Below are positions 44,132 through 63,948 of a stretch of 64,000 nt of DNA, piece by piece (the stretch's first letter is position 1; each line of letters begins with the position of its first letter). A program made the position numbers and the translations under genes. This DNA is from Oscillospiraceae bacterium. Lineage in GTDB: Bacteria; Bacillota; Clostridia; Oscillospirales; Ruminococcaceae. The DNA is taken from the NCBI GenBank assembly GCA_045591925.1, contig JAZNTW010000013.1, positions 13,776 through 77,775 on the forward strand, read 5' to 3'. The notes below the pieces were generated by a model. That model did no database searches. It had not been told where the DNA came from and saw only the letters and a list, made by a program, of their open reading frames with translations.

Positions 44132-44152
44132 GGGGCGGGGCTGGGGCTGGGG
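44132..44152 (+). other. Canonical G-quadruplex-forming motif
   Basis: GGGGCGGGGCTGGGGCTGGGG: four G4 runs with 1-2-nt loops, inside a 462-nt non-coding gap. Confidence 0.6.
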
Positions 44153-48754: not shown

Positions 48755-49039
48755 GTGCGGTGTGATAAGTGCGGATGTGCATTTGTACCGGAAACGCTGA
48801 CACAGCGTGAGGGCGAGATCGAATACAGCTTCTTCCGCTGCGACTACTGCGGTAAGGCGTATCTCGTATCCGTTACGGATGCAGACCTCCGCAAGGATAT
48901 CCGCAGGTACAGAACGCTTGCGGAAAAGCACAAGATCAAGCCGCTGAGTGAGCAGTCGCTCCGTGAAATGGCTGCGCTGAAGGAGCAGAACCTAAGACGA
49001 GCTGCAAAGCTGCGGCAATTGTACTATGTGGAGGGATGA
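48755..49039 (+). CDS. Zinc-ribbon protein; N-terminus probably disrupted by a 5-bp tandem duplication
   Basis: CDKCG...CDYCG. The GTG start lacks an SD. The strong SD + ATG at 48705 opens a 31-codon ORF that would be in frame if one GCGGT copy were removed. Confidence 0.55.
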   Translation: MRCDKCGCAFVPETLTQREGEIEYSFFRCDYCGKAYLVSVTDADLRKDIRRYRTLAEKHKIKPLSEQSLREMAALKEQNLRRAAKLRQLYYVEG

Positions 49040-49040
49040 A

Positions 49041-50315: not shown

Positions 50316-51111
50316 GCTGAAGCCTCAGTTTCATGTGGTTTCGCTGTCCGGCGGGAAAGACAGCACAGCGATGCTCCTGAAAATGCTCGAAATGGGGATG
50401 CAGGTCGATTTGGTGTTATTCTGCGATACACGTCTGGAATTCCCACAAATCTATACGCATCTACGAAAAATCGAGGAAAACACCGGCATCAAAATTACAA
50501 CCGTCAAGAGCGAATACACATTTGAGTATCTTATGCTCCATAAGCCCATCAAGCGGAAGAAGCCGGAACTGCGCGGCAAGACCGGGTATAGTTGGGCGGG
50601 GCCGCTGATGCGGTGGTGTACCAATCTTCTGAAAACCGTACCTCGTGAGAAATATCTCAGTGAACTGCGGAAGAAGTACACCGTGATCGAGTACATCGGC
50701 ATTGCCGCCGATGAGACGGAGCGCATCATGCACAAGTGCAATAGCCGACCGAATGTCCGTCTGCCGCTTGTGGAGTGGGGCATGACGGAAGCCGACTGCC
50801 TGCAATACTGCAAGGAGCGCGGCTATGACTGGGGCGGTCTGTATGAGAAGTTCGGAAGGGTGTCCTGCTGGTGCTGTCCGCTGCAGCCGCTGAACGAGCT
50901 GCGAATCCTCTATTTCGATTTTCCCGACCTCTGGGAACAGCTCAGAGCTTGGGATGACAAAACATGGCGCACCTTCAAGCCCGGCTGGTCAGTCCGGAAA
51001 CTGGAGGCGCGTTTTGATTTTGAGCTGGAATGGCAGACAGACGGTAATCAGCTCGGCACAAAGGAATTCCGCAAGGCACTGAAAAAGAGACTGGAGGGTG
51101 TCGATGGCTGA
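50308..51111 (+). CDS. PAPS-reductase-like PP-loop ATPase
   Basis: ATG 50308 overlapping the previous gene. SLSGGKDST PP-loop. Confidence 0.75.
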   Translation: MDELKPQFHVVSLSGGKDSTAMLLKMLEMGMQVDLVLFCDTRLEFPQIYTHLRKIEENTGIKITTVKSEYTFEYLMLHKPIKRKKPELRGKTGYSWAGPLMRWCTNLLKTVPREKYLSELRKKYTVIEYIGIAADETERIMHKCNSRPNVRLPLVEWGMTEADCLQYCKERGYDWGGLYEKFGRVSCWCCPLQPLNELRILYFDFPDLWEQLRAWDDKTWRTFKPGWSVRKLEARFDFELEWQTDGNQLGTKEFRKALKKRLEGVDG

Positions 51112-51883
51112 TGTGAAATGCGTTTTACTGCATGATAATTTCCAAAACTTCAAAGGCTACAACATCCCGAAGGCGCAGCTTGTTATCGCAGACATCCCGT
51201 ATAACATCGGCGGCGATTTTTATGCCAGCCGTCCCGACTGGTATGTAGACGGCGACAATCAGAACGGCGAAAGCAGCAAAGCACACAAGGCTGCATTTCA
51301 CACGGACTACACCTTTAACATCGCTGAATACTTCGCCTTCTGTAACCGACTGCTCAAAAAAGAGCCGTCCAAAGGTGAAAAGGACGCTCCGTGTATGATC
51401 GTGTTCTGCGCCTTTCAGCAGATACCGAAGGTCATCCGGCAGGCGGAGAAATACGGCTTCAAGAAGTATCAGTTTTTGTGCTTTATGAAGAATTATAGTC
51501 CGCAGGTGCTGAAAGCGAACATGAGGATCGTGGGAGCAACAGAATATGCACTGGTGCTTTACAGAAACAAGCTGCCGAAGTTCCGCAATACCGATGCGGA
51601 CGGCAAGCGGCACATGATCTTCGACCACTTCGACTGGGTGCGTGACGGCAGGGATATCCCGAAGATACATCCGAGCCAAAAGCCGGTGAATCTTCTGAAA
51701 CGGCTGATCGGTATTTTTACCGATGAGGGCGATGTGGTTATCGATCCCTGCGCCGGTTCAGGCTCTACGCTGCGTGCGGCGAGGGAGCTTGGCAGACACA
51801 GCTACGGCTTTGAAGTCAGCAGGGATTTTTACAACAAAGCCTGTGAGCAGATGCTTGGGGAGGTGCTGGATGACAAAGCATGA
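51104..51883 (+). CDS. N6/N4 DNA methyltransferase
   Basis: VIADIPYN (DPPY variant) and SQKPVNLLKRLI...VIDPCAGSGST. Confidence 0.8.
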   Translation: MADVKCVLLHDNFQNFKGYNIPKAQLVIADIPYNIGGDFYASRPDWYVDGDNQNGESSKAHKAAFHTDYTFNIAEYFAFCNRLLKKEPSKGEKDAPCMIVFCAFQQIPKVIRQAEKYGFKKYQFLCFMKNYSPQVLKANMRIVGATEYALVLYRNKLPKFRNTDADGKRHMIFDHFDWVRDGRDIPKIHPSQKPVNLLKRLIGIFTDEGDVVIDPCAGSGSTLRAARELGRHSYGFEVSRDFYNKACEQMLGEVLDDKA

Positions 51884-52076
51884 ATGTGCGGTCGTGACCG
51901 CGTACACAGAGATTTCGATGCTGAAAGGCGATGATCTGAAATATCTGTATAATTACCTTTCCGGCTTCATCGGCAGACCGGTGTATACACACGAGATTCC
52001 TGCGGTGGCGGCAGCTTATAGGAAACAGATCAGAGAGGATTTCCTTGCGATATGCAGGAATGCGACCGATGCCTGA
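51870..52076 (+). CDS. Hypothetical small protein
   Basis: 68-aa ORF with GGGGAGG upstream, overlapping both neighbours. Confidence 0.5.
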   Translation: MTKHECAVVTAYTEISMLKGDDLKYLYNYLSGFIGRPVYTHEIPAVAAAYRKQIREDFLAICRNATDA

Positions 52077-52704
52077 CCTTGTAAAAAGCATCGGCTACGA
52101 TCAGGGCGAGATCATCCGGAACATTCTAAAGCTCCATGTGCCGGAGGGAAGAATCGATTGCGATCCGACCTTCAGCACAGGGGCTTTCTACAATGGAACG
52201 GACATTGCCCTGCCGCAGTACCGCTTTGATATCTTTCCGCAGCGGAGCGATGTAGTACAGTCGGATGCAAGGCATCTTCCGCTTGCAGACAGCAGTATTT
52301 CCTGCATGATGCTCGATCCGCCGTTTTTAGCGACCAAAGGAAAATCGCTGAGCAGAACTGACGGCAACATCATCAACAGGCGTTTTGGTGTATATCCCGA
52401 TGAAAAGAGCCTACACCGATGCTATTCGGATATGCTTTCGGAGGCATACAGAGTCCTGAAACCGGACGGCATCCTGATCTTCAAGTGTCAGGACAAGGTC
52501 AGCAGCGGCAGGCAGTATCTGAGCCATGTTTATATCATAAACGAGGCGGTAAAGATCGGCTTCTATCCGAAAGACATCTTTGTGCTGCTTGCGAAAAGCC
52601 GACTGGTAGCTGACTGGCAAAAGCGGAATCAGAAGCACAGCCGCAAGTATCATGCGTATTTTATCGTGCTTCAAAAATCTGACAGGCGCATCAAGTACGT
52701 CTGA
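52069..52704 (+). CDS. Putative small DNA methyltransferase
   Basis: IDCDPTFSTGAFY (motif I-like) followed by MLDPPF (motif IV-like). Confidence 0.5.
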   Translation: MPDLVKSIGYDQGEIIRNILKLHVPEGRIDCDPTFSTGAFYNGTDIALPQYRFDIFPQRSDVVQSDARHLPLADSSISCMMLDPPFLATKGKSLSRTDGNIINRRFGVYPDEKSLHRCYSDMLSEAYRVLKPDGILIFKCQDKVSSGRQYLSHVYIINEAVKIGFYPKDIFVLLAKSRLVADWQKRNQKHSRKYHAYFIVLQKSDRRIKYV

Positions 52705-52718
52705 GTCAGGAGGAATAA

Positions 52719-55079
52719 ATGAAAACAAAACATCTGACGCTCGGCAGCCTGTTTGACGGCTCCGGCGGCTTTCCGCTTGGCGGCATCCTCGCAGGGATCG
52801 AGCCGAAGTGGAGCAGCGAAATTGAACCTTTCCCGGTACTTGTCACGCACAGGCGTCTGCCGGGGGTAAAGCACTACGGCGATGTATCTACGCTGAACGG
52901 CGCGGAGCTTCCGCCGGTAGATATCATCACCTTCGGCAGCCCGTGCCAAGACCTGTCCATTGCGGGCAAGCGTGCCGGAATCCATCACGGTGATCGGTCG
53001 AACCTGTTCTTTCAGGCGATCCGTATCATCAAAGAAATGAGGGATGCAACAAATGGACAATACCCGCGATACTGCGTCTGGGAGAACGTCCCCGGCGCTT
53101 TCTCCTCCAACGGAGGAAATGACTTCAAAGCTGTCCTCGAAGCAGTTATCGGAGTTAAAGAAGAAGGGATCGAGGTGCCTGCGCCTGAAAATCACAGATG
53201 GGCAAAAGCAGACGTATATCTGGGAGACAGATGGAGCGTGGCTTACCGAGTTTTCGATGCTCAATACTGGGGTGTCCCCCAGCGAAGAGCAAGAATCTAC
53301 CTTATCGCAGATTTTGCTGGCGGAAGTGCCGGAGAAGTATTATTTAAGTCCGAAGGCGTGTCTGGGTATACTCCGCAGGGCTTCCGTGCGTGGCAAGGAG
53401 TTGCCGGAGGTGCTGCGGAAAGCGCTGGAGAGACAGGCGGGCGGTCTGACGCTGGAGGTGGAACCCTCTGCCTGAATCCGCAGGGCAATTCCGGTGTCGG
53501 CATCACCGAGGACAAAGCGCTTGCGCTGGTCGCTCAGGATCATGGCAATCATCCTGCGGTGCTTCACGCAGTCGGCATTGACGGCTACAATGCCGCAGTG
53601 ACCGATGATACCGCAGCAACGCTCGGTGTAAATTGCGGAATGTCAACCGGCAGAAACGGTGTCCTACAGGCGGCGGGATTCTCAACGGAACACAGCGCAA
53701 AGGCTCGGAGCATCGGCTACGAGGAGGAAGTCTCCCCGACGCTGAGAGCCGGTGTCGTTCCGGCGGCACTCTCGGTCGAAAACCATCCGACAGACGGTCG
53801 CGTAAAGATTCGTGAGGATGACACCTGCCAGACTCTTTGCAGCCGAGCCGGAACAGGCGGAAATAATGTGCCGCTTGTCGCTGAACCTGTCACATTGAAG
53901 ATCAGGTCAGGATGTGCAGGCGGCGGCAAGGGCGCTCTTTGGCAGACCGATAAATCTGCAACGCTCGGAACGAATAATGACCAGACGCTCTTTCAGCCGG
54001 AAATCAAAGCCTTCGGTGTATGCAGCAAGCATTCCAATGCGATGATGTCAGACAATCCGCACAGCGGTTTCTATGAAGCGACTACAAGCAGAACACTCGA
54101 CCAAAGTGGCGGTCATGCGATATCAAGCAATCAGGGCGGCATCTGCGTGGTAGCACCTGCGCCGGAGACATTCGATGTGCGTTTCACATCTGACGGCACA
54201 AAGAATGCACGTGGGCATTGCTACCCGACGGACATTTCCCGATGCCTTGATACAAGTGAGGCAAATCCGGACAGTAATCACGATGGAGTTGCAGTGGTTG
54301 CGCTTGAACCGGGGGCTGCATCCCGTGTCGGCGGTCATGTATATAGTGACGGCAAAAGCGGAACGCTCCGTGCCAATGCCGGAGATAATCAGCAGGCTGT
54401 TGTGATGCCTGAAACATTCTCCCTGCAAGGCTCAATGATCGGACGCTCGGATGAGAACGGGCCGCAGGGTGACGGCATCAACGAGGATGTGTGCTTTACG
54501 CTGAATACAACGGACAGGCACGCTGTCGCCGCACCTGATCCGGCTTACGCAATTTCCCGTGACAATCACTTCGCCGTTTCGGAGGATGTATCTGTCACGG
54601 CGGTGGCAAGAGGTCCTGCGGCAGTCGCAGCACCGGCAGACCACTATTGCACCAGTAAAAATTCCCACCACACAGTGGCGGCACACGAACAGGCAAACAC
54701 GCTGGTCGCTTCCGACTGGAAAGATCCTCCGCTTGTGAACGACCTTCCGAATGACGAGCCGGTATATATCGTTCGCCGTCTGACTCCGGTGGAGTGCGCC
54801 AGATTGCAGGGATTCCCTGACTGGTGGTGTGCCGACCTTGCAATTACTGATCCTTCCGATGAGGAGATCGCTTTCTGGACGGAGGTCTGGGAAACATGGC
54901 GGCAAATCACCAATCCCAAGGGCAAGCCAAAAACGGAAAAGCAGATCAGAAAATGGTTGGCTGATCCGTACACGGATTCAGCGGAGTACAAGCTGTGGGG
55001 CAACGGTGTCTCAGAGCCGGTCGTATACTTCGTGCTTTCCGGCATCGCATGGGCAGCGCAGAGAGATACACAAAAGTGA
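52719..55079 (+). CDS. DNA (cytosine-5)-methyltransferase with greatly expanded variable region
   Basis: Motif I LFDGSGG, IV GSPCQDLS, VI ENVPG, VIII QRRARIYL, IX RLTPVECARLQGFP, X GNGVSEP. About 490 aa lie between motifs VIII and IX. Confidence 0.9.
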   Translation: MKTKHLTLGSLFDGSGGFPLGGILAGIEPKWSSEIEPFPVLVTHRRLPGVKHYGDVSTLNGAELPPVDIITFGSPCQDLSIAGKRAGIHHGDRSNLFFQAIRIIKEMRDATNGQYPRYCVWENVPGAFSSNGGNDFKAVLEAVIGVKEEGIEVPAPENHRWAKADVYLGDRWSVAYRVFDAQYWGVPQRRARIYLIADFAGGSAGEVLFKSEGVSGYTPQGFRAWQGVAGGAAESAGETGGRSDAGGGTLCLNPQGNSGVGITEDKALALVAQDHGNHPAVLHAVGIDGYNAAVTDDTAATLGVNCGMSTGRNGVLQAAGFSTEHSAKARSIGYEEEVSPTLRAGVVPAALSVENHPTDGRVKIREDDTCQTLCSRAGTGGNNVPLVAEPVTLKIRSGCAGGGKGALWQTDKSATLGTNNDQTLFQPEIKAFGVCSKHSNAMMSDNPHSGFYEATTSRTLDQSGGHAISSNQGGICVVAPAPETFDVRFTSDGTKNARGHCYPTDISRCLDTSEANPDSNHDGVAVVALEPGAASRVGGHVYSDGKSGTLRANAGDNQQAVVMPETFSLQGSMIGRSDENGPQGDGINEDVCFTLNTTDRHAVAAPDPAYAISRDNHFAVSEDVSVTAVARGPAAVAAPADHYCTSKNSHHTVAAHEQANTLVASDWKDPPLVNDLPNDEPVYIVRRLTPVECARLQGFPDWWCADLAITDPSDEEIAFWTEVWETWRQITNPKGKPKTEKQIRKWLADPYTDSAEYKLWGNGVSEPVVYFVLSGIAWAAQRDTQK

Positions 55080-55791: not shown

Positions 55792-55927
55792 TAATAAAGA
55801 AGCCATGCAGCAAATTGTGAACATTCTGATACTAAGTCAGGTGTTCTGCCGCAGGCTTCTTTTTTACACTCGTATTATGCACAATCAGTGGGGCGGATAT
55901 GCCCCGTACATTCTCCGTTTTACAGTC

Positions 55928-55956
55928 TTGCATTCCGGGGCAAAAGACGGTAATAT
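55928..55956 (+). promoter_or_regulatory. Cassette promoter copy 0
   Basis: -35 TTGCAT, 17-nt spacer, -10 TAATAT; GTACATT box upstream. Drives 56027-57655. Confidence 0.6.
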
Positions 55957-56026
55957 GTGACTACGAAAACGCCGCAGCCCAAGCGCACAGGGCGCAAGGG
56001 GCGGCAGTAAAAACGGAGGTTTTATT

Positions 56027-57013
56027 ATGGAAATCAAGTACAATATCGAAAAGAGTCAGCGCAAAGCACTGGCACAGAAAATCGCAGAGATCATCGGTGC
56101 GGAGGTCGAGTACCTCGGTGTTCCGAGCTGCGCCTACCAGATCGATTTCTTCACGCTGAGCAAGGACGCGGTCCTCAGCTTCACCGACCGCAGCGACACC
56201 GAGATCGTAGAGAAGGTTCTGGACGGGCTTGCCGATGCAGGCTACAACGGCGAGACGATCACTCCGCCGGCAGGAACGGATACCGCAACGGAAGCCGAAG
56301 AAAACTATGTCGAGATCGATGTGACCATTATCTCCGACACCGAGGAGGATACGCCGGACACCGATGAAGAGGTCACCAATGACAATGAGCCGGAGACCGA
56401 AACGGACGGCTTCCCAATTGCGGTAACGGTCGCTCTTCCGCTGGCTGACCACACGGTGCAGAGCCTCACGAACCTCATCTGCATGATCCACGCAAGGGGC
56501 GCACTTCTCAGCAAGGCGACCTGCGGAGCATTCGCCGCCGATAAGAGCCTTGTGGATGAGATTGGCGGACATGAGTTCCGCAGCACTTACGAGCTGATCG
56601 CCTTTATCAGAGAATGGGGTGAGACAAATCCGCCTCTGACCGGCATTTCCTTTGACAGCGACAAGCTCACCTTTGACGGCTTCGGTGAGGCGCAGGATGC
56701 CGACCATGTACAGACCTTCATGAAGCTCGCCGGCGCGATGAATCGTATGGCGCTTACGCAGAAGCGTGTGCAGGCAAAGGATGTGGACGATAGCAACGAG
56801 AAGTATTCGCTCCGCGTCTGGCTGATCCGCCTTGGACTGAACGGAGCAGACTGCAAGGCAGACCGCAAGCGCCTGATGGAGAACCTTTCCGGGCATTCGG
56901 CTTTCCGCAACGATGCGGAGCGTGAGCGTTGGGAAGCAAAGCAGAAGGCAAAGCGTGAAGCTGCCAAAGCCGAGCAGAACGAGGAGGACAATGACGATGC
57001 AGTTTCCGAATGA
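56027..57013 (+). CDS. Hypothetical 328-aa protein with acidic middle and conserved C-terminal module
   Basis: ACGGAGG upstream. The C-terminal SLRVWLIRLGLNGADCKADRKRLMENLSGHSAFRN is shared with the amidoligase. Confidence 0.65.
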   Translation: MEIKYNIEKSQRKALAQKIAEIIGAEVEYLGVPSCAYQIDFFTLSKDAVLSFTDRSDTEIVEKVLDGLADAGYNGETITPPAGTDTATEAEENYVEIDVTIISDTEEDTPDTDEEVTNDNEPETETDGFPIAVTVALPLADHTVQSLTNLICMIHARGALLSKATCGAFAADKSLVDEIGGHEFRSTYELIAFIREWGETNPPLTGISFDSDKLTFDGFGEAQDADHVQTFMKLAGAMNRMALTQKRVQAKDVDDSNEKYSLRVWLIRLGLNGADCKADRKRLMENLSGHSAFRNDAERERWEAKQKAKREAAKAEQNEEDNDDAVSE

Positions 57014-57242
57014 ACGACAGCTCCAAGCCCTGCGGGAGCGTTATCCTGCAGGCACACACATCCGCCTGAACCATATGGACGATCCCTATGCACCGGTTCC
57101 GGAAGGAACGATCGGCGAGGTTCAGTACATTGATGACGGGGGCAATATTCACATGATATGGAAGAACGGCAGAACGCTCTCGCTGATCGATGGGGTGGAC
57201 GATTTCACCATTATCACCAATGACAAGGAGGAAGGAAAATGA
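56991..57242 (+). CDS. DUF4314-like small protein
   Basis: GAGGAGGA upstream. YPAGTHIRLNHMDDPYAPVPEGTIGEVQYIDDGGNIHMIW pattern. Confidence 0.55.
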   Translation: MTMQFPNERQLQALRERYPAGTHIRLNHMDDPYAPVPEGTIGEVQYIDDGGNIHMIWKNGRTLSLIDGVDDFTIITNDKEEGK

Positions 57243-57655
57243 TCTACTTAGCCTACGGCTCGAATCTTCACATCGAGCATATGCAGCAGCGCTGCCCCAC
57301 CGCCGAAGTTCTCGGTACGAGCACGCTCCACGGATACCGACTGGTGTTCAACGGCGTGGCGACTATCGAGCCTGACCCCGACCGCAGCGTCCCCGTCCTA
57401 CTCTGGGACATCAAGCCCGCTGATGAGATCCCGCTTGACCGTTACGAGGGGTATCCTCGGCTCTACCGCCGGGATACTGTGCAGGTCGAGCTGGATGGAA
57501 AGACGGTCGATGCGATGGTCTACATCATGAACCCCAAGGGCATCGCACCGCCCAGCCCCTATTATTACGATGTGATCCGCAAGGGCTATAAAATGAATGG
57601 ACTGGACATAGCAGTGCTGGAACAGGCCCGGCAGGAATCCCTGACCAAACGCTGA
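57239..57655 (+). CDS. Gamma-glutamylcyclotransferase (AIG2/GGCT-like), copy 1
   Basis: YLAYGSNL N-terminus, DRYEGYP motif; ATGA overlap. Confidence 0.75.
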   Translation: MIYLAYGSNLHIEHMQQRCPTAEVLGTSTLHGYRLVFNGVATIEPDPDRSVPVLLWDIKPADEIPLDRYEGYPRLYRRDTVQVELDGKTVDAMVYIMNPKGIAPPSPYYYDVIRKGYKMNGLDIAVLEQARQESLTKR

Positions 57656-57750
57656 ACGCGCCACGTTCGCCCGTGTGGGGCTTTATAGGTATCCTTCGAC
57701 ATGTTACCCCGTTTCAGTTTCCGCCCCACACGGCACGTTTTACGGCGAGT
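57656..57750 (+). repeat. GC-rich imperfect palindromic intergenic element, copy 1
   Basis: CCGTGTGGGGC (57671-57681) pairs perfectly with GCCCCACACGG (57723-57733), followed by CACGTTTTACGG. Confidence 0.65.
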
Positions 57751-57808
57751 CATATAATGAACAAATAACGCCGCAGAATCGCCCGATATGATCTCTACAT
57801 TTAGCCGC

Positions 57809-57837
57809 TTGATAACCTCCGCAGGGTATGGTAATAT
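57809..57837 (+). promoter_or_regulatory. Cassette promoter copy 1
   Basis: -35 TTGATA, 17 nt, -10 TAATAT; CTACATTTAGCCGC immediately upstream. Confidence 0.65.
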
Positions 57838-57889
57838 GTCACACAACGGTAGGCGGATGCCCGCTAAACACCTGAACGGAGGAGATTAC

Positions 57890-58360
57890 ATGAGCAAGAA
57901 AAGATACTACCTCGCATACGGAAGCAATCTGAACCGCAAGCAGATGGAGATGCGATGCCCCGGTGCAAGGGTTGTCGGAACAGCATTGATTGAAGGCTAC
58001 GGGCTGCTGTTCAAGGGCAGCAAGACCGGATTTTACCTGACCATCGAGCCAAAAGCCGACGGTGTTGTTCCGGTCGCAGTCTGGGAGGTCACGGCAGAGC
58101 ATGAGCGAATGCTCGACCGCTACGAGGGCTGCCCTGTCTGCTACTATAAGAAAGAGATCAGCCTTCCGGTGCGCAGAGCGAAAAGCGGCAGGACACTCCA
58201 GACCAACGGCTTTCTGTACATCATGAATGAAAAGCGCCGGCTCGGAGAACCGACACCAAGATATTTCTGGACTTGTGTACAGGGCTACCGGTCATTCGGA
58301 TTCGATCCGGAATTCCTCTACGAAGCCTATGAACGCAGTACGAGGTATCTGTACCGATAA
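57890..58360 (+). CDS. Gamma-glutamylcyclotransferase (AIG2/GGCT-like), copy 2
   Basis: ACGGAGGAG upstream. YLAYGSNL and DRYEGCP. Confidence 0.75.
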   Translation: MSKKRYYLAYGSNLNRKQMEMRCPGARVVGTALIEGYGLLFKGSKTGFYLTIEPKADGVVPVAVWEVTAEHERMLDRYEGCPVCYYKKEISLPVRRAKSGRTLQTNGFLYIMNEKRRLGEPTPRYFWTCVQGYRSFGFDPEFLYEAYERSTRYLYR

Positions 58361-58554
58361 GAAAAGCGGCGGCATGGCGGGGATCGCTCCCCGCTGTCCT
58401 GACCGCTGATTTTATACCTCACTGGGGGCCTCCGAAAATGAGAGATCCTATTCCATTGTATCCAAGTTTACCATAAAAACGCAAGGATATCAAGTATGTA
58501 AAAGTACCAGAGATACGGCAAAAATACACCGAAATGATCTGTACATTTAGCCGC

Positions 58555-58583
58555 TTGATATATCCTCCGAAAGACGGTAATAT
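58555..58583 (+). promoter_or_regulatory. Cassette promoter copy 2
   Basis: -35 TTGATA, 17 nt, -10 TAATAT; GTACATTTAGCCGC upstream. Confidence 0.65.
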
Positions 58584-58637
58584 GTGACACAACGAAAGGC
58601 AGACAGCCTTCCGAAAACCGAAACGGAGGATACAAAA

Positions 58638-59582
58638 ATGACTGAGAAGACCGCACAGCAGATTAACAGAATGAAGGAGCAGACCATCGGGGTTGAGGTT
58701 GAGATGAACAACATCACCCGAAAGGCTGCCGCAAAGCTCGCCGCAGAGTTCTTCGGCACCAACCGCACCGAGTACACAGGCAGCCGCAACGGCTACGAAA
58801 CCTACAGCGCATGGGACGCACAGGGCAGAGAGTGGAAGTTCCAGAAGGACGTCAGCATCGCAGGCCACGACAGCGAAAAGTGCGAACTGGTCACACCGAT
58901 CCTGACCTACACAGACATCGAAACCCTGCAGGAGCTGATCCGCCGCCTTCGCAAGGCGGGCGCAAAGAGCGACTACACAAGAGGATGCGGAGTTCACATT
59001 CACATCGGAGCGCAGGGACACACACCGCAGAGCCTCAGAAACCTCGCCAACATCATGGCAAGCCACGAAACACTGATCGCCGAAGCAATCAAGGTAGACC
59101 ACAGCAGAATGAACCGCTACTGCAGAACGGTCGACCCGAGATTCCTCGACCAGATCAACCGCAAAAAGCCCCGCACGATGGCACAGCTTGCGGACATCTG
59201 GTACGGCGCACAGGGATGCACCTACGGCAGAACCCACCACTACAACGACAGCCGCTACCACATGCTCAACCTCCACGCCACCTTCACAAAGGGCACGGTT
59301 GAGTTCAGACTTTTCCAGTTCGCACCGCCCGCAAACGGCAAGCAGAACGGCCTTCACGCAGGCAAGCTCAAGAGCTACATTCAGCTTTGCCTCGCAATGA
59401 GCCAGATGGCAAAGGACCTCAGAAGCGCAAGCCCCAAGGAACAACAGAAAGAAAACAAGGTTTTCGCAATGAGAACCTGGCTGATGAGAATGGGCTTCAT
59501 TGGCGACGAGTTCGCAACAGCAAGAGAGACCCTTACCGAAAACCTGACGGGAAACGCAGCCTTCCGATTCGGCAGACCTTAA
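58638..59582 (+). CDS. Amidoligase_2-family (glutamine-synthetase-like) enzyme
   Basis: ACGGAGGA upstream. TIGVEVEMNNI start and CGVHIHIG motif are as I recall them for the putative amidoligase family. Confidence 0.65.
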   Translation: MTEKTAQQINRMKEQTIGVEVEMNNITRKAAAKLAAEFFGTNRTEYTGSRNGYETYSAWDAQGREWKFQKDVSIAGHDSEKCELVTPILTYTDIETLQELIRRLRKAGAKSDYTRGCGVHIHIGAQGHTPQSLRNLANIMASHETLIAEAIKVDHSRMNRYCRTVDPRFLDQINRKKPRTMAQLADIWYGAQGCTYGRTHHYNDSRYHMLNLHATFTKGTVEFRLFQFAPPANGKQNGLHAGKLKSYIQLCLAMSQMAKDLRSASPKEQQKENKVFAMRTWLMRMGFIGDEFATARETLTENLTGNAAFRFGRP

Positions 59583-59703
59583 GGTCTGCCCTTCGGGGCG
59601 CAGAAACAAGCGGAACGGCACGGGCGCACACAGCGCCCACGGTCTCGGCTGTCGCCTCGGTCGGTGCTTCTGCTTCGCAGAGGTTGCCACTGGCAACCCG
59701 CAC

Positions 59704-59792
59704 CCCCGTGTGGGGCGGAAGGGGTATCCTCCGATTCGGTATCCCACCTCAGTCAACCGCGCCACACAACGCGACACGGCGCAATCGTGAGC
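59704..59792 (+). repeat. GC-rich imperfect palindromic intergenic element, copy 2 (variant)
   Basis: CGTGTGGGGCGG ... CCGCGCCACACAACG arms. The loop holds a direct GGTATCC repeat. Ends GACACGGCGCAATCGTGAGC. Confidence 0.55.
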
Positions 59793-59854
59793 AAAGCATA
59801 AAATGAACAACAAACCGCGCAGAATCGCCCTGAATGATCTGTACATTTACCGGG

Positions 59855-59883
59855 TTGCTATTTTTCGAGTAAAGAGTTAATAT
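59855..59883 (+). promoter_or_regulatory. Cassette promoter copy 3
   Basis: -35 TTGCTA, 17 nt, -10 TAATAT; GTACATTTACC upstream. Confidence 0.6.
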
Positions 59884-59923
59884 GTCACTACCGAAAGGAA
59901 AACATCGCAAAGGAGTCCTGAAC

Positions 59924-60187
59924 ATGACAAGCAAAGAACATATTGAAAGCCTGCGCCGCCATGGAGTACGCCTGATTGCAAAGGACGGCATGACCAGAGA
60001 AATCCCCGCCGACTTCCTCGAAACCACCACCAAGATGCTGAACGACATCGGAGCAAGGAAGATCACCTACAGCATTGCGGTTCCCGAAACCAACGAGGAG
60101 ATGCTCCTTGCGATCTGGGACTGCGGATACGCAGAATCGGGCAACGCCGATGAGATTCTCAGCCACACCGAGCGAACCGAAGAATGA
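59924..60187 (+). CDS. Hypothetical small protein
   Basis: AAAGGAG upstream; 87 aa. Confidence 0.6.
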   Translation: MTSKEHIESLRRHGVRLIAKDGMTREIPADFLETTTKMLNDIGARKITYSIAVPETNEEMLLAIWDCGYAESGNADEILSHTERTEE

Positions 60188-60238
60188 CAGCCTGCCGCCT
60201 TCGGGCGGCACACCACCAACTACATAGGAGGAATTCAA

Positions 60239-60442
60239 ATGAAAGACCGAGTAAACGAACCACGCAAATGCCCCAAGTGCGGACGCACCTACACCGAGCG
60301 ACCGGCGCTGTCCCGCTACGACAACGATACACTGATCTGCCCCGACTGCGGCACAAGAGAAGCTCTTGAAAGCATGGGCATCAGCATCGAGGAACAGGAT
60401 AAGATCCTCGGAATCATCCACGACAAGTACATTCCCGAATAA
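60239..60442 (+). CDS. Zinc-ribbon small protein
   Basis: TAGGAGGA upstream. CPKCG...CPDCG. Confidence 0.65.
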   Translation: MKDRVNEPRKCPKCGRTYTERPALSRYDNDTLICPDCGTREALESMGISIEEQDKILGIIHDKYIPE

Positions 60443-60533
60443 GGGGCGCACAGCGGGCGGTGTGGGGCTTCACGGCTCTGCGCCGCTTGTTTGTTGGGCG
60501 GATTCCGGGCGCGACACGGCGCGTTTGTGAGCC
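60443..60533 (+). repeat. GC-rich imperfect palindromic intergenic element, copy 3
   Basis: GGCGGTGTGGGGC ... GCGACACGGCGCGTTTGTGAGCC. Confidence 0.55.
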
Positions 60534-60613
60534 TCCTGTGGGGCGTTGGTATATGTACCAGTTATAACGGCGAAAATCGGCGATTCTTCTACGATTTATT
60601 TTGCACATAGGCG

Positions 60614-60642
60614 TGGACTTTTCTCAAAATAAGAGTTAACAT
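60614..60642 (+). promoter_or_regulatory. Cassette promoter copy 4 (variant subfamily)
   Basis: -35 TGGACT, 17 nt, -10 TAACAT. Same context (GGCGTGGACTT...AAGAGTTAA) as copy 7. Confidence 0.5.
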
Positions 60643-60691
60643 ACAGATGCCGAAAGGCACAAAGCACCCACATTTCAAGGAGGATACGAAC

Positions 60692-61042
60692 ATGAGAGAG
60701 AATGCATATTTTGAGGAAATGCGGCACAGGGAGAAGAACAGCGCGGAGACCTACCTTTTCCACCATTACAGCTACAGCCTTGACTACGGCTGCACGGTTT
60801 TTGAGCTTTTCAAGCTGCCGTTTTTCTGCCACATCGAGTTCATCGTGAGCACGCTCCGCAAGGCGGGCATCACCTCGGTGGTCATCACGGAAGCCAACGA
60901 GCATCTGTTCGGCATCCTGAACGAGTTTGCAAGGCTTGGCTGCACCGGCTTTGAGCCGGTAACGATCAGCAGATTCACAACTTGGGATCCGCACTGCCAG
61001 AACGAGCGCGAGCATCGTGACGGCATCCGCATTACACTTTGA
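60692..61042 (+). CDS. Hypothetical protein
   Basis: AAGGAGGA upstream; 116 aa. Confidence 0.6.
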   Translation: MRENAYFEEMRHREKNSAETYLFHHYSYSLDYGCTVFELFKLPFFCHIEFIVSTLRKAGITSVVITEANEHLFGILNEFARLGCTGFEPVTISRFTTWDPHCQNEREHRDGIRITL

Positions 61043-61092
61043 AAGCGATAAGGGGCAGGGCTTCGGTTCTGCCCCACCGAAAGGAGCAGAGC

Positions 61093-61368
61093 ATGAAACG
61101 ATATCCTTGGGATGAATACGCAACAATGCAGGGGCTTTGGGATATCCACTGCATCGGCGCAGGTGCCGCGCTGAAATACGGCGACCATGTGTTTGCGGTA
61201 TCGGATACCTACACCGGCTACGAAGCCGCCGTGTACAAGTTCACCGGCTCGGAGGAGGACGGCGATAAGGACTTCTGGGAGTGCGAGCTGAAACTGCAGG
61301 CCGCCTCTCCGGAGCCGTTCCCCGACGGCGGTCATGCGGTAGAGTGGTGCTTGAAGCAGCTCGGCTGA
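61093..61368 (+). CDS. Hypothetical protein
   Basis: GAAAGGAG upstream; 91 aa. Confidence 0.6.
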   Translation: MKRYPWDEYATMQGLWDIHCIGAGAALKYGDHVFAVSDTYTGYEAAVYKFTGSEEDGDKDFWECELKLQAASPEPFPDGGHAVEWCLKQLG

Positions 61369-61470
61369 CGGCGCACATTTGCACCACGCTGCCCCGTGTG
61401 CGGTTTTCCGGCGGTAAGCGTATTACTTGCCCCCCCGCGGAAAGCCGGCCCACACGGCGCGTTTGTGCGT
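61369..61470 (+). repeat. GC-rich imperfect palindromic intergenic element, copy 4
   Basis: CCGTGTGCGG ... CTTGCCCCCCCGCGGAAAGCCGGCCCACACGGCGCGTTTGTGCG. Confidence 0.65.
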
Positions 61471-61552
61471 GTTCTGACGCATTCTGCGGCAAGGCATAAT
61501 ATGTACAACAAATGGCGCAGATACGCCGATTTTGTTCTGTACATTTAGCCGC

Positions 61553-61581
61553 TTGATATACTCCGCAAGGTATGGTAATAT
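61553..61581 (+). promoter_or_regulatory. Cassette promoter copy 5
   Basis: -35 TTGATA, 17 nt, -10 TAATAT. The 37 nt upstream, up to and including the TTG of the -35 box, are identical to copy 6. Confidence 0.65.
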
Positions 61582-61641
61582 GCTACACAACGGCAAGGGC
61601 GGAACGCCCACCGGAATACAACCAAAACGGAGGATACCACC

Positions 61642-61965
61642 ATGAACCCCTACACGCTGAGAAATCACTTCACCCTGCTCGATTACAACACGGCGATCAG
61701 CCGCGAGGACTTCGAGAACAACTTCTGCAAGACCGCAGAGCGCATCACCTTCACCTTCAACGGCTGGGACGGCAAGAGCTACGATGGCGAGAGCCGCACA
61801 GCCCGCGTCTACCGCACCACGGTCAAGGGCTACGAGGATGTGCGCTTCATCAAGGTCGGCAAGCACCTCTGCTACATTGACGAGGACAGCGAGATCATCG
61901 AAAAGGCGACCGGCGTCGCCCACAAGGAAGCCGAGTGGCTGGTCGAGGTACAGAGACGAGGATAA
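61642..61965 (+). CDS. Hypothetical protein
   Basis: ACGGAGGA upstream; 107 aa. Confidence 0.65.
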   Translation: MNPYTLRNHFTLLDYNTAISREDFENNFCKTAERITFTFNGWDGKSYDGESRTARVYRTTVKGYEDVRFIKVGKHLCYIDEDSEIIEKATGVAHKEAEWLVEVQRRG

Positions 61966-62029
61966 GGCAGAAGGCGGAGCCCTTCCTGCGGGGAGGGCTT
62001 ACCGCAGAAAATATACGGAGGTTTTGAAC

Positions 62030-62413
62030 ATGAGCACGAATTCAAGAATCGGCATCCTGCACGAGGACGGCACCACGGAAACGATCTACTGCCACTGGGA
62101 CGGCTACCCCGAACACCAGATGCCCATCCTTACCGAGCATTACAACACCGCAGAGAAGGTCAAGGCGCTGCTTGCCCTCGGAGACATCAGCATCCTCGGT
62201 GAGCGCCTTGCGCCGGATGCGGACGAGCAGCACAGCTTCGAGAAGCCTGCGGAGGGCGTGACGGTTGCATACCACCGCGACCGCAACGAGCCGATGCAGC
62301 CTGCGGTCACCCACAAGAGCGTTGTTTCGCTGATGAGAGACGACTGGGGCATCCCGTATTACTACCTTTTCGATGAAAGGACGGGACAGTGGATTCCGCC
62401 GACCGAGGGCTGA
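62030..62413 (+). CDS. Hypothetical protein
   Basis: ACGGAGG upstream; 127 aa; internal ATG of track ORF 61784..62413. Confidence 0.65.
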   Translation: MSTNSRIGILHEDGTTETIYCHWDGYPEHQMPILTEHYNTAEKVKALLALGDISILGERLAPDADEQHSFEKPAEGVTVAYHRDRNEPMQPAVTHKSVVSLMRDDWGIPYYYLFDERTGQWIPPTEG

Positions 62414-62437
62414 CAAGTTCAGCCCTGCGGGGCTGAC

Positions 62438-62528
62438 TTGCGCCACGTTCGCCTGTGCGCGGTTTTCCTGCGGTGAGCGATAAACTTGCCCCTGCGGAAA
62501 GCCGCCCCACACGGCGCGTTTGTGCGCC
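62438..62528 (+). repeat. GC-rich imperfect palindromic intergenic element, copy 5
   Basis: TTGCGCCACGTTCGCCTGTGCGCGG ... CTTGCCCCTGCGGAAAGCCGCCCCACACGGCGCGTTTGTGCGCC. Confidence 0.65.
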
Positions 62529-62600
62529 TCCAGTGGGAATGGTGTACTATGTACAATAAATGACGTAGATACGCCGATTTTGTTCTGTACATTTAGCCGC

Positions 62601-62629
62601 TTGCTATTCCGGAAAGATCATGGTAATAT
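62601..62629 (+). promoter_or_regulatory. Cassette promoter copy 6
   Basis: -35 TTGCTA, 17 nt, -10 TAATAT. Confidence 0.65.
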
Positions 62630-62685
62630 GTGACACAACGGAAGGGCAAACGCCCAGCCGAATACAACAACGGAGGTACACCACC

Positions 62686-63051
62686 ATGACCAAGAAAAAA
62701 CTGAACGAGATCAAGACCACCCTGAACTTCCTGCGGAACGGCAGAGCCGCCACCGAGCAGATGACCGAAGAGACCTGCCTTGAGGTCTACGGTATCTCGA
62801 AGGCGCAGGCACTGAAAAACATGGACAGCAGCATCGCCAAATACGAGCGCGAGCTGCAGAGAGCCGAGCATCCGCTGGAGGGCATCGACAAGAAGGTCTA
62901 CGAGATCGCCGCAAAGCACCTGATTCTGGTAGCCGAGCGCGGAGACCTCGAAACCCGCCACTGCGACCGCGAGGACTTCATCGAGGTTTCGGTCTGGGGA
63001 CTGGAAGCAGCCCTGAAAGAAGCCTACGAGGCAGGACGCAAGAGCAAGTAA
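62686..63051 (+). CDS. Hypothetical protein
   Basis: ACGGAGG upstream; 121 aa. Confidence 0.65.
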   Translation: MTKKKLNEIKTTLNFLRNGRAATEQMTEETCLEVYGISKAQALKNMDSSIAKYERELQRAEHPLEGIDKKVYEIAAKHLILVAERGDLETRHCDREDFIEVSVWGLEAALKEAYEAGRKSK

Positions 63052-63113
63052 ACGAACGGAGCAGCGCAGCCCTTCCGCAGGGAGGGGCTGCCAAACCCGA
63101 AGGAGGAGAGAAC

Positions 63114-63293
63114 ATGGATACATACGCACAGCTTGAAATGCTGACCGCAGTCATTGCAAACCTGTCGGTTACGGGAACATGGACGGAGCGAGAAGTGATG
63201 GAAACGCTACTGGATGTCTTTGAGCCGAAGGAGCTTGAACAGCTCGGCTACGGCGACCGTGTGAATGCCTACTTGGAAGAGTACGGCGAATAA
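63114..63293 (+). CDS. Hypothetical small protein (59 aa, below the ORF-track cutoff)
   Basis: AGGAGGAGAGAAC before the ATG at 63114. Reads MDTYAQLEMLTAVIANLSV...EEYGE to TAA at 63291-63293. Confidence 0.55.
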   Translation: MDTYAQLEMLTAVIANLSVTGTWTEREVMETLLDVFEPKELEQLGYGDRVNAYLEEYGE

Positions 63294-63300
63294 CGCCGAC

Positions 63301-63393
63301 ACTTGCGCCACGTTGCCCTGTGTGGGGCTGTGCCGGGAAGATGCGTACAGCTTGCCCCTGCGGAAAGCCGCCTTACACAGCGCGACTGTGCGC
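63301..63393 (+). repeat. GC-rich imperfect palindromic intergenic element, copy 6
   Basis: TGTGTGGGGC (63319-63328) pairs with GCCTTACACA (63370-63379) through two G-T(U) wobbles. Same CTTGCCCCTGCGGAAAGCC core as copy 5. Confidence 0.65.
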
Positions 63394-63463
63394 GACCTGA
63401 ACGATGTACAATTCCGCCTGATTTTCCGCCTCATGTCTGGTACATTTATTTTGCGAAAAGGCG

Positions 63464-63492
63464 TGGACTTATCGCAGAAAAAGAGTTAATAT
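63464..63492 (+). promoter_or_regulatory. Cassette promoter copy 7 (variant subfamily)
   Basis: -35 TGGACT, 17 nt, -10 TAATAT. Confidence 0.5.
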
Positions 63493-63539
63493 GTCACTAC
63501 CGCCAGACAAGCGGAATCAAACAAAAGGAGCGAATCTAC

Positions 63540-63893: not shown

Positions 63894-63948
63894 AACAAAG
63901 GCGGGGCTGCCCTTCACCGGGCAGCCGAATGCCGAAAGGAGAAAATAC

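Follow-up and report, generated by a model that had tools for sequence, protein, structure and literature searches.

An undescribed family of imperfect palindromes marks cassette boundaries in a prophage array of small accessory genes

Introduction

In T4-type phages, promoter-early stem-loops (PeSLs) have been described as composite motifs of terminator and promoter through which hyperplastic regions undergo indels and swaps (Arbiol et al. 2010, PMC2839356; Comeau et al. 2014, PMC4122927). The elements described here, palindromes of ~95 bases located between a stop codon and the following promoter in a prophage array of small accessory genes, resemble PeSLs in several respects. In both, a conserved stem-loop adjoins a sigma-70-type promoter that is also conserved, copies of the module stand between small accessory ORFs of a plastic genome region, and the modules are the points at which indels and replacements between related phages break. 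Homologous exchange between repeats, as the mechanism proposed, is a further shared feature. However, the sequence is different and the lineage is that of Firmicutes siphovirus-like phages of the rumen and gut, near Ca. Heliusvirales. The small terminator hairpin of PeSLs is replaced by an imperfect palindrome of ~95 nt whose arms are conserved, whose centre has a fixed length of 46–48 nt and which lacks a T-tract. Furthermore, the element is optional: of the 206 promoters of this type it precedes only 58, so that it is dispensable.

The morons of lambdoid phages, in the description associated with Juhala, Hendrix and colleagues, are reportedly promoter-gene-terminator units. Like these, the present cassettes appear as autonomous accessory-gene transcription units with their own promoter and a 3' hairpin, all in one orientation. 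The 3' structures of morons are ordinary, unrelated T-tract intrinsic terminators, whereas those found here belong to one homologous family across cassettes and genomes. Integron attC sites are likewise imperfect palindromes (~60–140 nt) that contain bulges, have conserved ends and vary in the centre, and they are placed directly after cassette ORFs in one orientation throughout. The present elements differ from them in having no R''/R' boxes, strand bias or IntI, in cassettes that carry promoters and in the lack of a tie to the upstream ORF.

Repeats of the REP, ERIC and Correia type are imperfect palindromes of ~100 nt located in intergenic or 3' sequence that is transcribed; their presence varies between strains and they presumably act on mRNA stability or termination. 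Their copies lie on chromosomes in either orientation and frequently show mobility with duplication of the target, whereas the present elements are phage-borne, uniformly oriented, syntenic and promoter-coupled. The Frpo/ssi signals of conjugative plasmids share with them the long imperfect hairpins near early accessory genes. In contrast to these signals, the stems described here contain no promoter hexamers, show no strand specificity and stand in no conjugative context.

Results

Genomic context

The window (the whole 64-kb stretch of DNA that was analysed) is a phage replication and accessory region and not a conjugative element. It encodes PolA, a D5/NrS-1-type primase-helicase, SNF2, NrdD and methylases, together with a DUF2800 nuclease (PD-(D/E)XK), an Enc34-type ssDNA-binding protein and a sigma r4 protein. 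Among annotated records, the nearest ones belong to Caudoviricetes, Ca. Heliusvirales. Neither a relaxase nor a T4SS is present in the window. Genes of accessory and anti-defence type (amidoligase, GGCT, DUF3846 and DUF4314) lie downstream of elements.

Anatomy and distribution of the element family

A preliminary description had listed six related GC-rich imperfect palindromes. Sequence, repeat families and alignment agree with this: all six are present where it had placed them (Table 1) and their similarity is far beyond chance. Covariance model R1 matches exactly these six copies in the window (69–100 bits, E-values of 1e-17 to 5e-27) and no seventh one. A 19-mer of the 3' arm has three occurrences at ≤3 mismatches, with 0.01 expected. 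About 100 further copies were detected by covariance model across ~40 rumen and gut viral contigs, and the family is absent from Rfam, GenBank phages and PLSDB plasmids. The palindromes thus form a previously undescribed family of repeats, and this family marks the boundaries of cassettes.

Conserved arms, CCACGTTCGCC-Y-GTGTGGGGC and GCCCCACAC-R-GCGCG, flank a spacer of constant length with a variable and mostly unstructured sequence. The distance from arm to arm is 46–48 nt in 85 of 91 copies, which suggests a geometric constraint at the DNA level. GTGT/ACAC is invariant in the arms, and CCAC and GCGC are nearly invariant; what is conserved in the arms is sequence, not structure. The centre (44–46 nt) falls into 17 sequence clusters with a mean z of -0.58 and is not consistently structured, so the "hairpin" closes a large loop. 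The long consensus proposed earlier holds for copies 4–6 only; copies 1–3 have the arms alone in common and differ in the ~45-nt centre. Distant members of the family are nearly perfect palindromes and score almost equally on both strands.

Copies 1, 3 and 4 begin with the first base after a stop codon, namely the TGA of the GGCT/AIG2 gene (57239–57655) and the stop codons of the Zn-ribbon gene (60239–60442) and the Nmad4 gene (61093–61368), respectively. In copy 2 the 5' arm is interrupted by an insertion; HSPs stop at 59641 and restart at 59704 with contiguous subject coordinates. The 3' arm of this copy holds a 10-nt tandem duplication (CACAACGCGA/CACGGCGCAA).

Table 1. Palindromic elements and adjoining features in the window
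Feature	Position	Strand	Remarks
Copy 1	57656–57750	+	Type A centre; perfect 11-bp core; 74.6 bits
Promoter module after copy 1	57789–57848	+	TCTACATTTAGCCGCTTGATA-N17-TAATAT
Original outer 5' arm of copy 2, displaced	59622–59640	+	GCGCACACAGCGCCCACG; unbroken GCACACACAGCGCCCACGTCGCCCCGTGTGGGGC in relatives
Insertion splitting the 5' arm of copy 2	59641–59703	+	62 nt; also in contig L070
Copy 2	59704–59792	+	Type B centre; core and 3' arm; 69 bits
Promoter module after copy 2	59835–59894	+	Diverged variant
Copy 3	60443–60540	+	Type E; z -2.6; 76.3 bits
Variant promoter-like block after copy 3	60594–60642	+	ATTTATTTTGC..GGCGTGGACTT..GAGTTAACAT; same type as after copy 6
Copy 4	61369–61478	+	89.8 bits
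Spacer with two TGTACA boxes and promoter module after copy 4	61500–61592	+	ATGTACAACAAAT..ATTTTGTTCTGTACAT
Short GC hairpin	62414–62440	+	CAAGTTCAGCCC-TGC-GGGGCTGACTTG; between stop codon and copy 5
Copy 5	62436–62534	+	z -3.9; 100 bits
Spacer with two TGTACA boxes and promoter module after copy 5	62548–62640	+	
Copy 6	63301–63400	+	Two G·T wobbles in core; z -3.2; 96.4 bits
Variant promoter-like block after copy 6	63444–63499	+	

Position and orientation

Within each locus all copies lie on one strand, and the orientation of the element is that of the genes in 98 of 98 copies. A same-strand ORF of at least 50 aa ends ≤120 nt upstream in 93 of these, and its stop codon is often overlapped. 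In about half of the 98 copies the element starts between -4 and +13 nt from a same-strand stop codon. The start codon of the next gene follows 124–229 nt downstream (91 of 95 copies), which leaves room for a promoter. A strict promoter motif is found 44–92 nt downstream of 50 of the 98 copies, mostly at 51–55 nt, and never on the strand opposite to the element.

Folding, strand symmetry and covariation

The perfect pairing of the outer arms reported for copy 1 is confirmed (11-bp core, CCGTGTGGGGC/GCCCCACACGG), as is the pairing of GTGTGGGGC with GCCTTACAC via two G·T wobbles in copy 6. Minimum free energies of the elements range from -34 to -58 kcal/mol, and near-continuous stems of 45–50 bp are predicted for some copies, for example L023:10091. 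Compared with shuffled sequences, the fold is clearly better for copies 3, 5 and 6 only (z-scores in Table 1) and marginal for copies 1 and 4. Copy 2 folds no better than its shuffles (z -0.14) because the 62-nt insertion splits its 5' arm.

The wobbles of copy 6 had been taken as covariation that preserves pairing on the plus strand only. Mismatch counts, strand folding and the orthologues of copy 6 contradict this as a family-wide feature. In these orthologues, CGGC or TCGG stands at the corresponding positions of the 3' arm and does not pair, so that the change is one-sided drift. RNA from one strand is expected to disfavour A·C mismatches. Transition-type mismatches in 75 distinct copies amount to 189 G·T versus 153 A·C, and to 76 versus 67 in the model-fitted alignment. 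Only 32 of 75 copies fold more stably on the plus strand than on the minus strand (Wilcoxon test, p=0.77 with RNA and p=0.24 with DNA parameters). Covariation is weak. Values observed with the MAFFT alignment do not exceed those of shuffles; in the model-fitted alignment lenient measures alone exceed the shuffles (6–7 of 500) and the number of covarying pairs does not. The larger alignment is thus largely without covariation support for the pairing.

Relation to terminators

The suggestion that the elements are large intrinsic terminators insulating each cassette agrees with their position after the stop codon, their co-orientation with the genes and the promoter downstream, but the T-tract is missing. 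The ~10 nt after the outer stem contain 2–4 T in 86 of 97 copies, and terminator-like calls are absent at the six elements. Classical intrinsic termination is therefore not predicted for these stems. True terminators composed of A-tract, hairpin and T-tract are located nearby at 55796–55865 and 58365–58415. Short hairpins without a T-tract also occur inside cassettes, where they are evidently read through.

Conservation and cassette junctions

Orthologous elements are 75–88% identical, compared with 61–82% at third codon positions of the flanking genes. Identity drops sharply outside the arms, from 0.85–0.86 to 0.63–0.66 in the flanks. Copy 5 is missing at the orthologous site in four relatives (L052, L047, L110 and L001), and the short GC hairpin that precedes it here is the sole 3' structure retained there. 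Short GC hairpins or canonical terminators occupy the equivalent sites in relatives and other junctions of the window. The position is thus a slot for 3'-end structures.

Of 147 homology breakpoints against relatives, 43 map to an element at a tolerance of ±12 nt, compared with 12 expected, and coding sequence accounts for only 15, compared with 95 expected. All other intergenic junctions show an enrichment as well, with 89 breakpoints against 40 expected. These counts are phylogenetically non-independent. Among 215 pairs of elements with at least 85% identity, the upstream flanks are unrelated in 36 and the downstream flanks in 27, both flanks in only 5. In the comparison of L023 with L037, L072 and L099, divergence begins exactly at the 3' edge of the element. 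These mosaic breakpoints at element edges and the empty orthologous sites support a weaker form of the proposal that the palindromes are recombination sites: they mark cassette junctions and probably help to create them.

Discussion

Tentatively, the element is best explained as part of a hairpin-plus-promoter boundary module, which would serve both as an mRNA 3' barrier or insulator and as a homology patch for cassette exchange. Such a module consists, in this order, of a stop codon, the ~95-nt GC-rich imperfect palindrome, a ~50-nt spacer with TGTACA boxes, a sigma-70-type promoter, a leader hairpin and an RBS. Modules of this kind would separate moron-like accessory-gene cassettes in a prophage apparently related to Ca. 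Heliusvirales, with the element as their upstream half. In the mRNA at the cassette end, the arms would pair via the 11-bp GTGTGGGGC/GCCCCACAC core and bulged outer helices. The very stable 3' stem may insulate the cassette through leaky termination (U-tract-independent or factor-assisted), by blocking 3' exonucleases or in both ways, and the next cassette would restart from its own promoter.

A serious rival, although on balance unlikely, is a palindrome that acts as DNA, with a dimeric or higher-order phage or host protein bound to the inverted arms or to an extruded cruciform. The arms are ~54 bp apart from centre to centre, equal to five helical turns, and the occupied site could be a roadblock or insulator of transcription or could regulate the adjacent promoter from upstream. 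Mycobacteriophage stoperators follow an analogous logic. The conserved arm sequence, the fixed spacing around a divergent centre, the symmetry of mismatch counts and strand stabilities, the near-perfect palindromes of distant members and the constant distance to the promoter motif all favour protein binding. However, no candidate binding protein was identified and half-sites this far apart are unusual for a simple operator. A symmetric site needs neither a fixed orientation nor abutment to a stop codon, although whole-module duplication could explain both, and the constant length could result from descent without indels. Less probable still is a selfish MITE- or REP-like palindrome that has spread through these phages into 3' slots between genes, where it is tolerated or only mildly useful. 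Such an origin would account for a discrete unit with sharp boundaries, for arms resembling TIRs, for presence or absence at an orthologous site and for several copies per genome in one lineage only, outside GenBank phages and plasmids. It does not account for the same orientation in all copies or for conservation above that of synonymous sites, and comparison of empty and filled sites reveals no target-site duplication. Furthermore, the copies are type-specific and syntenic across genomes instead of near-identical at unrelated sites (5 of 215 pairs), and the scanned window proteins included neither a transposase nor a RAYT-like protein.

The strong form of the recombination-site proposal, attC-like folded-ssDNA sites served by a recombinase encoded outside the window in an integron-like cassette platform of the phage, is very improbable. 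The topology is alike (outer helix, unpaired internal loop, inner helix with a conserved bulged C and variable ~45-nt centre), and abutted or overlapped stop codons, uniform orientation and junctions at element edges would be expected of such sites. Nevertheless, the elements do not belong to this class, as RYYYAAC/GTTRRRY (R''/R') boxes are present in 0 of 97 copies on either strand. Strand asymmetry is absent, the cassettes have their own promoters and junctions are equally common at hairpin-free gene boundaries. An attC site travels with its upstream ORF; here the flanks change on both sides. Tyrosine or serine recombinases were not found among the window ORFs scanned. Single-strand initiation signals or ssDNA promoters (Frpo/ssi-like) that act on one strand of incoming ssDNA, also suggested previously, are largely refuted. 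The resemblance is confined to the general look, with long imperfect hairpins that precede genes of accessory and anti-defence type, which plasmid leading regions also contain. Hexamers resembling -35 and -10 boxes are absent from the stems, all promoter-like sites lie downstream in ordinary duplex and neither strand is favoured. The element resides on the replicon of a tailed dsDNA phage that has a PolA and a primase of its own, and it has zero matches among 72,556 plasmids.

For the boundary module, the repeated and conserved ~95 bp in one orientation would provide patches of homology at the DNA level. Crossover at these patches may be performed by the DUF2800 PD-(D/E)XK nuclease and the Enc34-type ssDNA-binding protein of the phage or by host functions, and recombination inside the element would have caused the junctions. 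Cassettes would be gained, lost and swapped at the elements, as has been proposed for the PeSL modules of T4-type phages.

Six palindromes and their anatomy

The six GC-rich imperfect palindromes are present in the window sequence and are not a product of chance: the 19-mer of the 3' arm is seen three times, against 0.01 expected. A covariance model of the family finds exactly these six copies in the 64 kb, with 69–100 bits. As in the preliminary description, the core of copy 1 is a perfect 11-bp helix and the core of copy 6 pairs via two G·T wobbles. The long consensus proposed there fits copies 4–6, whereas copies 1–3 have the arms alone in common. Copy 2 carries a 62-nt insertion within its 5' arm, the original outer arm being located at 59622-59640. 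With a folding z of −0.14 this copy is no better than shuffled sequence, and stability clearly beyond that of shuffles is confined to copies 3, 5 and 6. The insertion contains a small hairpin of its own (GTTGCC-ACT-GGCAAC). Contig L070 also carries the insertion; L103, L114, L123, L047, L110, L007 and L045 lack it.

Coordinates of the palindromes and associated features in the window
Feature	Coordinates	Remark
Palindromes, copies 1 to 6	57656-57750, 59704-59792, 60443-60533, 61369-61470, 62438-62528, 63301-63393
Insertion in copy 2	59641-59703
Amidoligase-type genes	56027-57013, 58638-59582	phrog_2443, Pfam Amidoligase_2
GGCT/AIG2 genes	57239-57655, 57890-58360
SAM synthetase	42387-43553	dense DNA-modification block, 42387-55079
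ParB_N-N6/N4 methylase fusion	49026-50315	DNA-modification block
PAPS-reductase-like protein	50113-51111	DNA-modification block
Two more N6/N4 methylases	51098-51883, 52045-52704	DNA-modification block
C5 methylase, 786 aa	52719-55079	DNA-modification block
Divergent promoter pair	48560-48700	within DNA-modification block
Promoter module TGTACATTTAGCCGCTTGATA-N17-GGTAATATG	57789-57848, 58535-58594, 61533-61592, 62581-62640	highly conserved
Same promoter module, more sites	55927-55963; 48627-48646 (minus strand)
Second promoter-like block	60594-60642, 63444-63492	84% identical to each other
Conserved intergenic block	58445-58500	TTCCATTGTA..TTTACCATA..GCAAG
Intra-cassette hairpins, 7–11 bp	60193-60210, 61052-61075, 61974-62005, 63066-63091, 63900-63933	z −2.1 to −3.8
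Canonical A-tract/hairpin/T-tract intrinsic terminators	55796-55865, 58365-58415	z −4.9 and −4.2, respectively
Protein with sigma-70 region 4	30245-31087	phage-encoded
ORF with type I dockerin domain	18841-22026 (minus strand)	1061 aa

Genome context of the array

Between 55.9 and 64 kb the window holds small genes in a plus-strand array. According to Pfam and PHROGs, these encode DUF4314, two GGCT/AIG2-like and two amidoligase-type proteins, a Zn-ribbon protein, Nmad4, DUF6900 and DUF3846. Upstream of the array are a family-A DNA polymerase, a D5/NrS-1-type primase-helicase, an SNF2 helicase, NrdD and SAM synthetase, together with at least four DNA methyltransferases, a DUF2800 PD-(D/E)XK nuclease, an Enc34-type ssDNA-binding protein and the sigma region-4 protein. 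The nearest annotated records are Caudoviricetes of the Ca. Heliusvirales from human faeces, matched via the amidoligase and GGCT genes only. This phage gene set and these records indicate a (pro)phage context and not a conjugative element; phage genes and no relaxase are found among the window genes.

The amidoligase and GGCT/AIG2 pairs in neighbouring cassettes suggest duplication followed by divergence of cassettes. The sigma-70 region 4 protein possibly directs a separate (late) promoter class. Most ORFs in the first 29 kb of the window have no Pfam or PHROG match. The dockerin ORF suggests that the host is Ruminococcus-like and bears a cellulosome, or that a segment derived from the host lies left of the phage region.

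The element family

Eight IMG/VR contigs contain the 18-mer of the 3' arm, and at least 120 contain the promoter motif TGTACATTTAGCCGCTTG that lies downstream. About 40 of these contigs contain a total of about 100 strong copies as judged by nhmmer and the covariance model, and further copies are present in metagenome contigs. Element-bearing contigs have several copies each, always on one strand. Weaker, more symmetric relatives occur in additional gut contigs. Contigs were also scanned with GTGTGGGGC-N35-60-GCCCCACAC. As this pattern is too loose for high-GC genomes, the loci L127 to L246 are chance matches in unrelated genomes of that kind (Actinomycetota, Pseudomonadota, Acidobacteriota and others) and were left out.

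In an alignment of 75 sequences the left arm reads GCGCC-ACGTT-CGC-C-Y-GTGTGGGGC and the right arm GCCCCACAC-R-G-CGC-G-(TTTGTG / ACTGTG / TTCTGG / ACACGG / TTTTAC)-GCGC, with invariant GTGT and ACAC and a centre of 44–46 nt between the arms. The arms can pair as an 11-bp core, a bulged C followed by a 3-bp helix, an internal loop and an outer helix of 5–6 bp. Some copies are almost continuous hairpins of 45–50 bp (−58 kcal/mol for L023:10091). The centres form 17 sequence clusters and are not consistently structured when folded alone (mean z −0.58, several values positive). Even so, GTGTGG and CCACAC are 46–48 nt apart in 85 of 91 distinct copies. Paralogous types are 70–74% identical in the arms, 48% in the centre and 35–40% in the immediate flanks; for copies of the same type, identity is about 85% in the arms and about 64% in the flanks. 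Thus, the unit has sharp edges.

Distant members in human-gut contigs (L038:24-142, L032:536-654, L035:6329-6447 and similar loci) come close to perfect palindromes. In these, the 3' arm by itself contains a local 10-bp hairpin, GCCCCACACAG-GCGAA-CTGTGCGGGGC, followed by TTGGTTGG, which hints at alternative local and long-range folds.

No Rfam family matches the window at the gathering threshold. At E ≤ 1 none lies on the elements between 57 and 64 kb, the one match elsewhere being a chance snoRNA hit. A blastn search with copy 5 gave no match in 50,697 GenBank phage records or in 72,556 PLSDB plasmids, and the paper on the Heliusvirales mentions no hairpins, palindromes, intergenic regions, terminators or promoters. 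With respect to Rfam, GenBank phages and PLSDB the family is undescribed. Its kind is already known, namely repeated terminator-like and promoter modules at the edges of accessory cassettes.

Strand preference and covariation

It had been proposed that the wobbles of copy 6 maintain pairing for the plus strand only. The family gives no indication of this. The plus strand is the more stable RNA in only 32 of 75 distinct copies (Wilcoxon p=0.77), DNA parameters likewise favour neither strand (p=0.24), and copies 1 and 2 fold better as the minus strand. Mismatches of the transition type are about equally G·T and A·C, both in a strand-neutral hairpin alignment of the 75 copies (189 vs 153) and in a model-fitted alignment (76 vs 67). 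In orthologues of copy 6 the wobble positions are CGGC or TCGG and unpaired, and the two wobbles are therefore one-sided drift and not covariation.

RNAalifold returned only 4 pairs for the MAFFT alignment of the 75 copies, which is uninformative because of register shifts. A hand-drawn structure of 20 pairs and the covariance model were used instead. For the hand-drawn structure on the MAFFT alignment all covariation measures are at or below column shuffles. The model-fitted alignment, which itself leans towards the structure, places the covariation score and the doubly changed cells above all but 6–7 of 500 shuffles; the more robust counts (covarying pairs, pair types) do not exceed them. 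Real double changes are confined to three pairs, G-C/C-G at 17-115, C-G/U-A at 29-105 and C-G/U-G/U-A at 34-98, and 24% of the cells are unpaired. Support from covariation in the larger alignment is thus weak, and conservation of the arms is at the level of sequence.

Position within the intergenic module

Upstream of 93 of 98 copies, and no more than 120 nt away, lies the end of a same-strand ORF of at least 50 aa; about half of the 98 start between −4 and +13 nt from the stop codon. A strict promoter motif follows 44–92 nt downstream in 50 of the 98, mostly at 51–55 nt and never on the opposite strand. The next start codon preceded by a Shine-Dalgarno sequence is 124–229 nt downstream in 91 of 95 non-redundant cases, and a gene directly follows the element in only 4 members of the non-redundant set. 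The unit of repetition is the entire intergenic module, comprising palindrome, spacer with two TGTACA boxes, promoter and leader.

The promoter module occurs in 206 non-redundant copies in the viral contigs retrieved. An element lies 5' of only 58 of them, and short GC hairpins or canonical terminators precede the rest. The module has a second TGTACA box some 35 nt further upstream, which gives the inverted repeat ATGTACAACAAAT..ATTTTGTTCTGTACAT. It resembles a family of early promoters under regulation (operator-bearing) that is common to many gut and rumen phages. Palindromes 3 and 6 are followed by the second promoter-like block, ATTTATTTTGC..GGCGTGGACTT..GAGTTAA(T/C)AT, in place of the TGTACATTTAGCC type. 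The conserved intergenic block of the table recurs 5' of the promoter module in many other contigs, e.g. L098 and L100-L103.

Each gene junction within the window cassettes has a short GC tetraloop hairpin without a T-tract, directly 5' of the next RBS. These hairpins must be read through and are thus probably mRNA processing or stability elements. The two canonical terminators within the array show that ordinary terminators are in use here, unlike the palindromes, which have no T-tract.

Cassette junctions

Elements orthologous to the window copies are 75–88% identical to them, compared with 61–82% for third codon positions of neighbouring genes and 84–95% for promoters, so the elements are constrained. 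Copy 5 (62436-62534) is absent from the orthologous site in L052, L047, L110 and L001, where the same stop codon is followed only by a short CAGCCC-TTCG-GGGCTG hairpin. No target duplication is visible between the filled and the empty sites.

When the window is compared with its relatives, 43 of 147 orthologous HSP ends are within 12 nt of an element (12 expected), but other intergenic and gene-edge positions are enriched as well (89, 40 expected), and coding sequence is depleted (15, 95 expected). Among 215 element pairs of at least 85% identity both flanks are related in 147, the upstream flank is unrelated in 36, the downstream flank in 27 and both in 5. Neither the breakpoint nor the flank counts are phylogenetically independent. 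Similarity of L023 to L037, L072 and L099 runs up to the element's 3' edge and stops precisely there, and L099 differs upstream. Taken together, these alignments place the elements at mosaic joints on either side, although not as the sole joints.

Interpretation

The reading preferred here, albeit tentatively, is that of a cassette-boundary element with two roles. In the transcript the palindrome would form a very stable 3' stem acting as insulator or decay barrier, possibly with factor-assisted termination; as repeated DNA it would supply the homology at which cassettes swap. The proposal of large intrinsic terminators fits the stable GC-rich stems that lie 3' of stop codons in the direction of transcription. 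However, no T-run directly follows the stem (2–4 T in the 10 nt past the outer stem in 86 of 97 copies), the core closes a large, mostly unstructured centre, the outer helices are bulged, and none of the six window elements receives a terminator-like call. The missing T-tract sits badly with the preferred reading as well and is a point for the main rival, a protein-binding or cruciform site of fixed geometry acting at the DNA level. The same holds for a centre that is unstructured yet fixed in length, for mismatch types that are symmetric and for arms of invariant sequence. Such a site is considered unlikely though worth serious attention. A selfish element of the MITE/REP kind is less probable still. 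Terminal inverted repeats and presence/absence polymorphism are as expected for it, but synteny is maintained, the orientation is uniform (98 of 98), no target duplication is visible at the copy 5 site, and similar copies at unrelated sites are scarce (5 of 215 pairs).

The remaining readings involve recombination or single-stranded DNA. It appears improbable that the accessory-gene array uses the elements as dedicated sites for DNA recombination or junctions, which would make it an integron-like platform for capture and shuffling of cassettes unrelated to attC/IntI; folded or protein-bound palindromes with fixed 46–48-nt arm spacing would then be recognised by a recombinase or, alternatively, by a nuclease and ssDNA-annealing pair that the phage itself encodes. 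The proposed attC-like sites are very improbable. With regard to strand-selective folding, the elements have an internal loop and a bulged C that is conserved, but their pairing is not asymmetric between strands. R'' RYYYAAC and R' GTTRRRY boxes are absent on either strand from all six window and all 97 family copies. The window ORFs scanned include no recombinase, the cassettes have their own promoters, unlike promoterless integron cassettes, and the element is not tied to the upstream ORF, either flank being exchanged. An ssDNA promoter (Frpo) or single-strand initiation element (ssi) of transferred DNA is hardly credible: no pair of −35/−10 hexamers lies inside the stem of any of the six copies, and strand bias, plasmid matches and a relaxase are all missing. 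The elements are not evidence for ssDNA biology or an integron. Recognition by the NrS-1 PrimPol has a low prior.

Several further ideas were discarded. Minus-strand coding (ORFs 57586-57846, 60414-60608, 61332-61544, 62307-62510 and 63207-63434) was rejected because there is no common peptide, the core is in differing frames and lengths vary by 1–2 nt. A candidate DnaA box, TGTGGATAA or TGCGGATAA, is central in many relatives and in none of the six window copies. An inverton was considered since the type A centre (one of the sequence classes of the middle) looks like types C and D reverse-complemented; however, a profile that omits types A and B continues to recognise type A on the plus strand, and orthologues have one orientation. 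A pseudoknot between loop and 3' flank (CTTGCC with GGCAAG) co-occurs inconsistently in the alignment. For CRISPR-repeat mimicry and for likeness to sigma-54 or LexA boxes, inspection by eye gave no convincing match.

By analogy, the closest described system is the PeSL, a composite terminator/promoter of T4-type phages. PeSLs are regarded as mediating, through homologous exchange, the indels and swaps of hyperplastic regions (PMC2839356, PMC4122927). In both cases a stem-loop adjoins a conserved early-type promoter and is repeated between small ORFs, and indel or replacement breakpoints lie at the modules, with the reservation that here other intergenic junctions are enriched too and the counts are not independent. 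In contrast to PeSLs, the element is unmatched in the GenBank phage records, which include T4-type phages, and its genome context is that of another phage lineage. Judged from this search and context, it is an analogue and not a homologue. Moron architecture resembles the module more loosely.

The accessory region of a widespread rumen and gut phage lineage, likely serving host takeover or anti-defence, consists of promoter-bearing cassettes separated by an undescribed family of conserved palindromes. A simple terminator does not explain the fixed arm spacing and the conservation at the sequence level, and a specific factor for binding or for recombination is therefore conceivable. Should the elements insulate transcripts and serve as crossover points, this would explain the free shuffling of small accessory genes, and the elements would be practical markers of cassette boundaries for the annotation of metagenomic phages.
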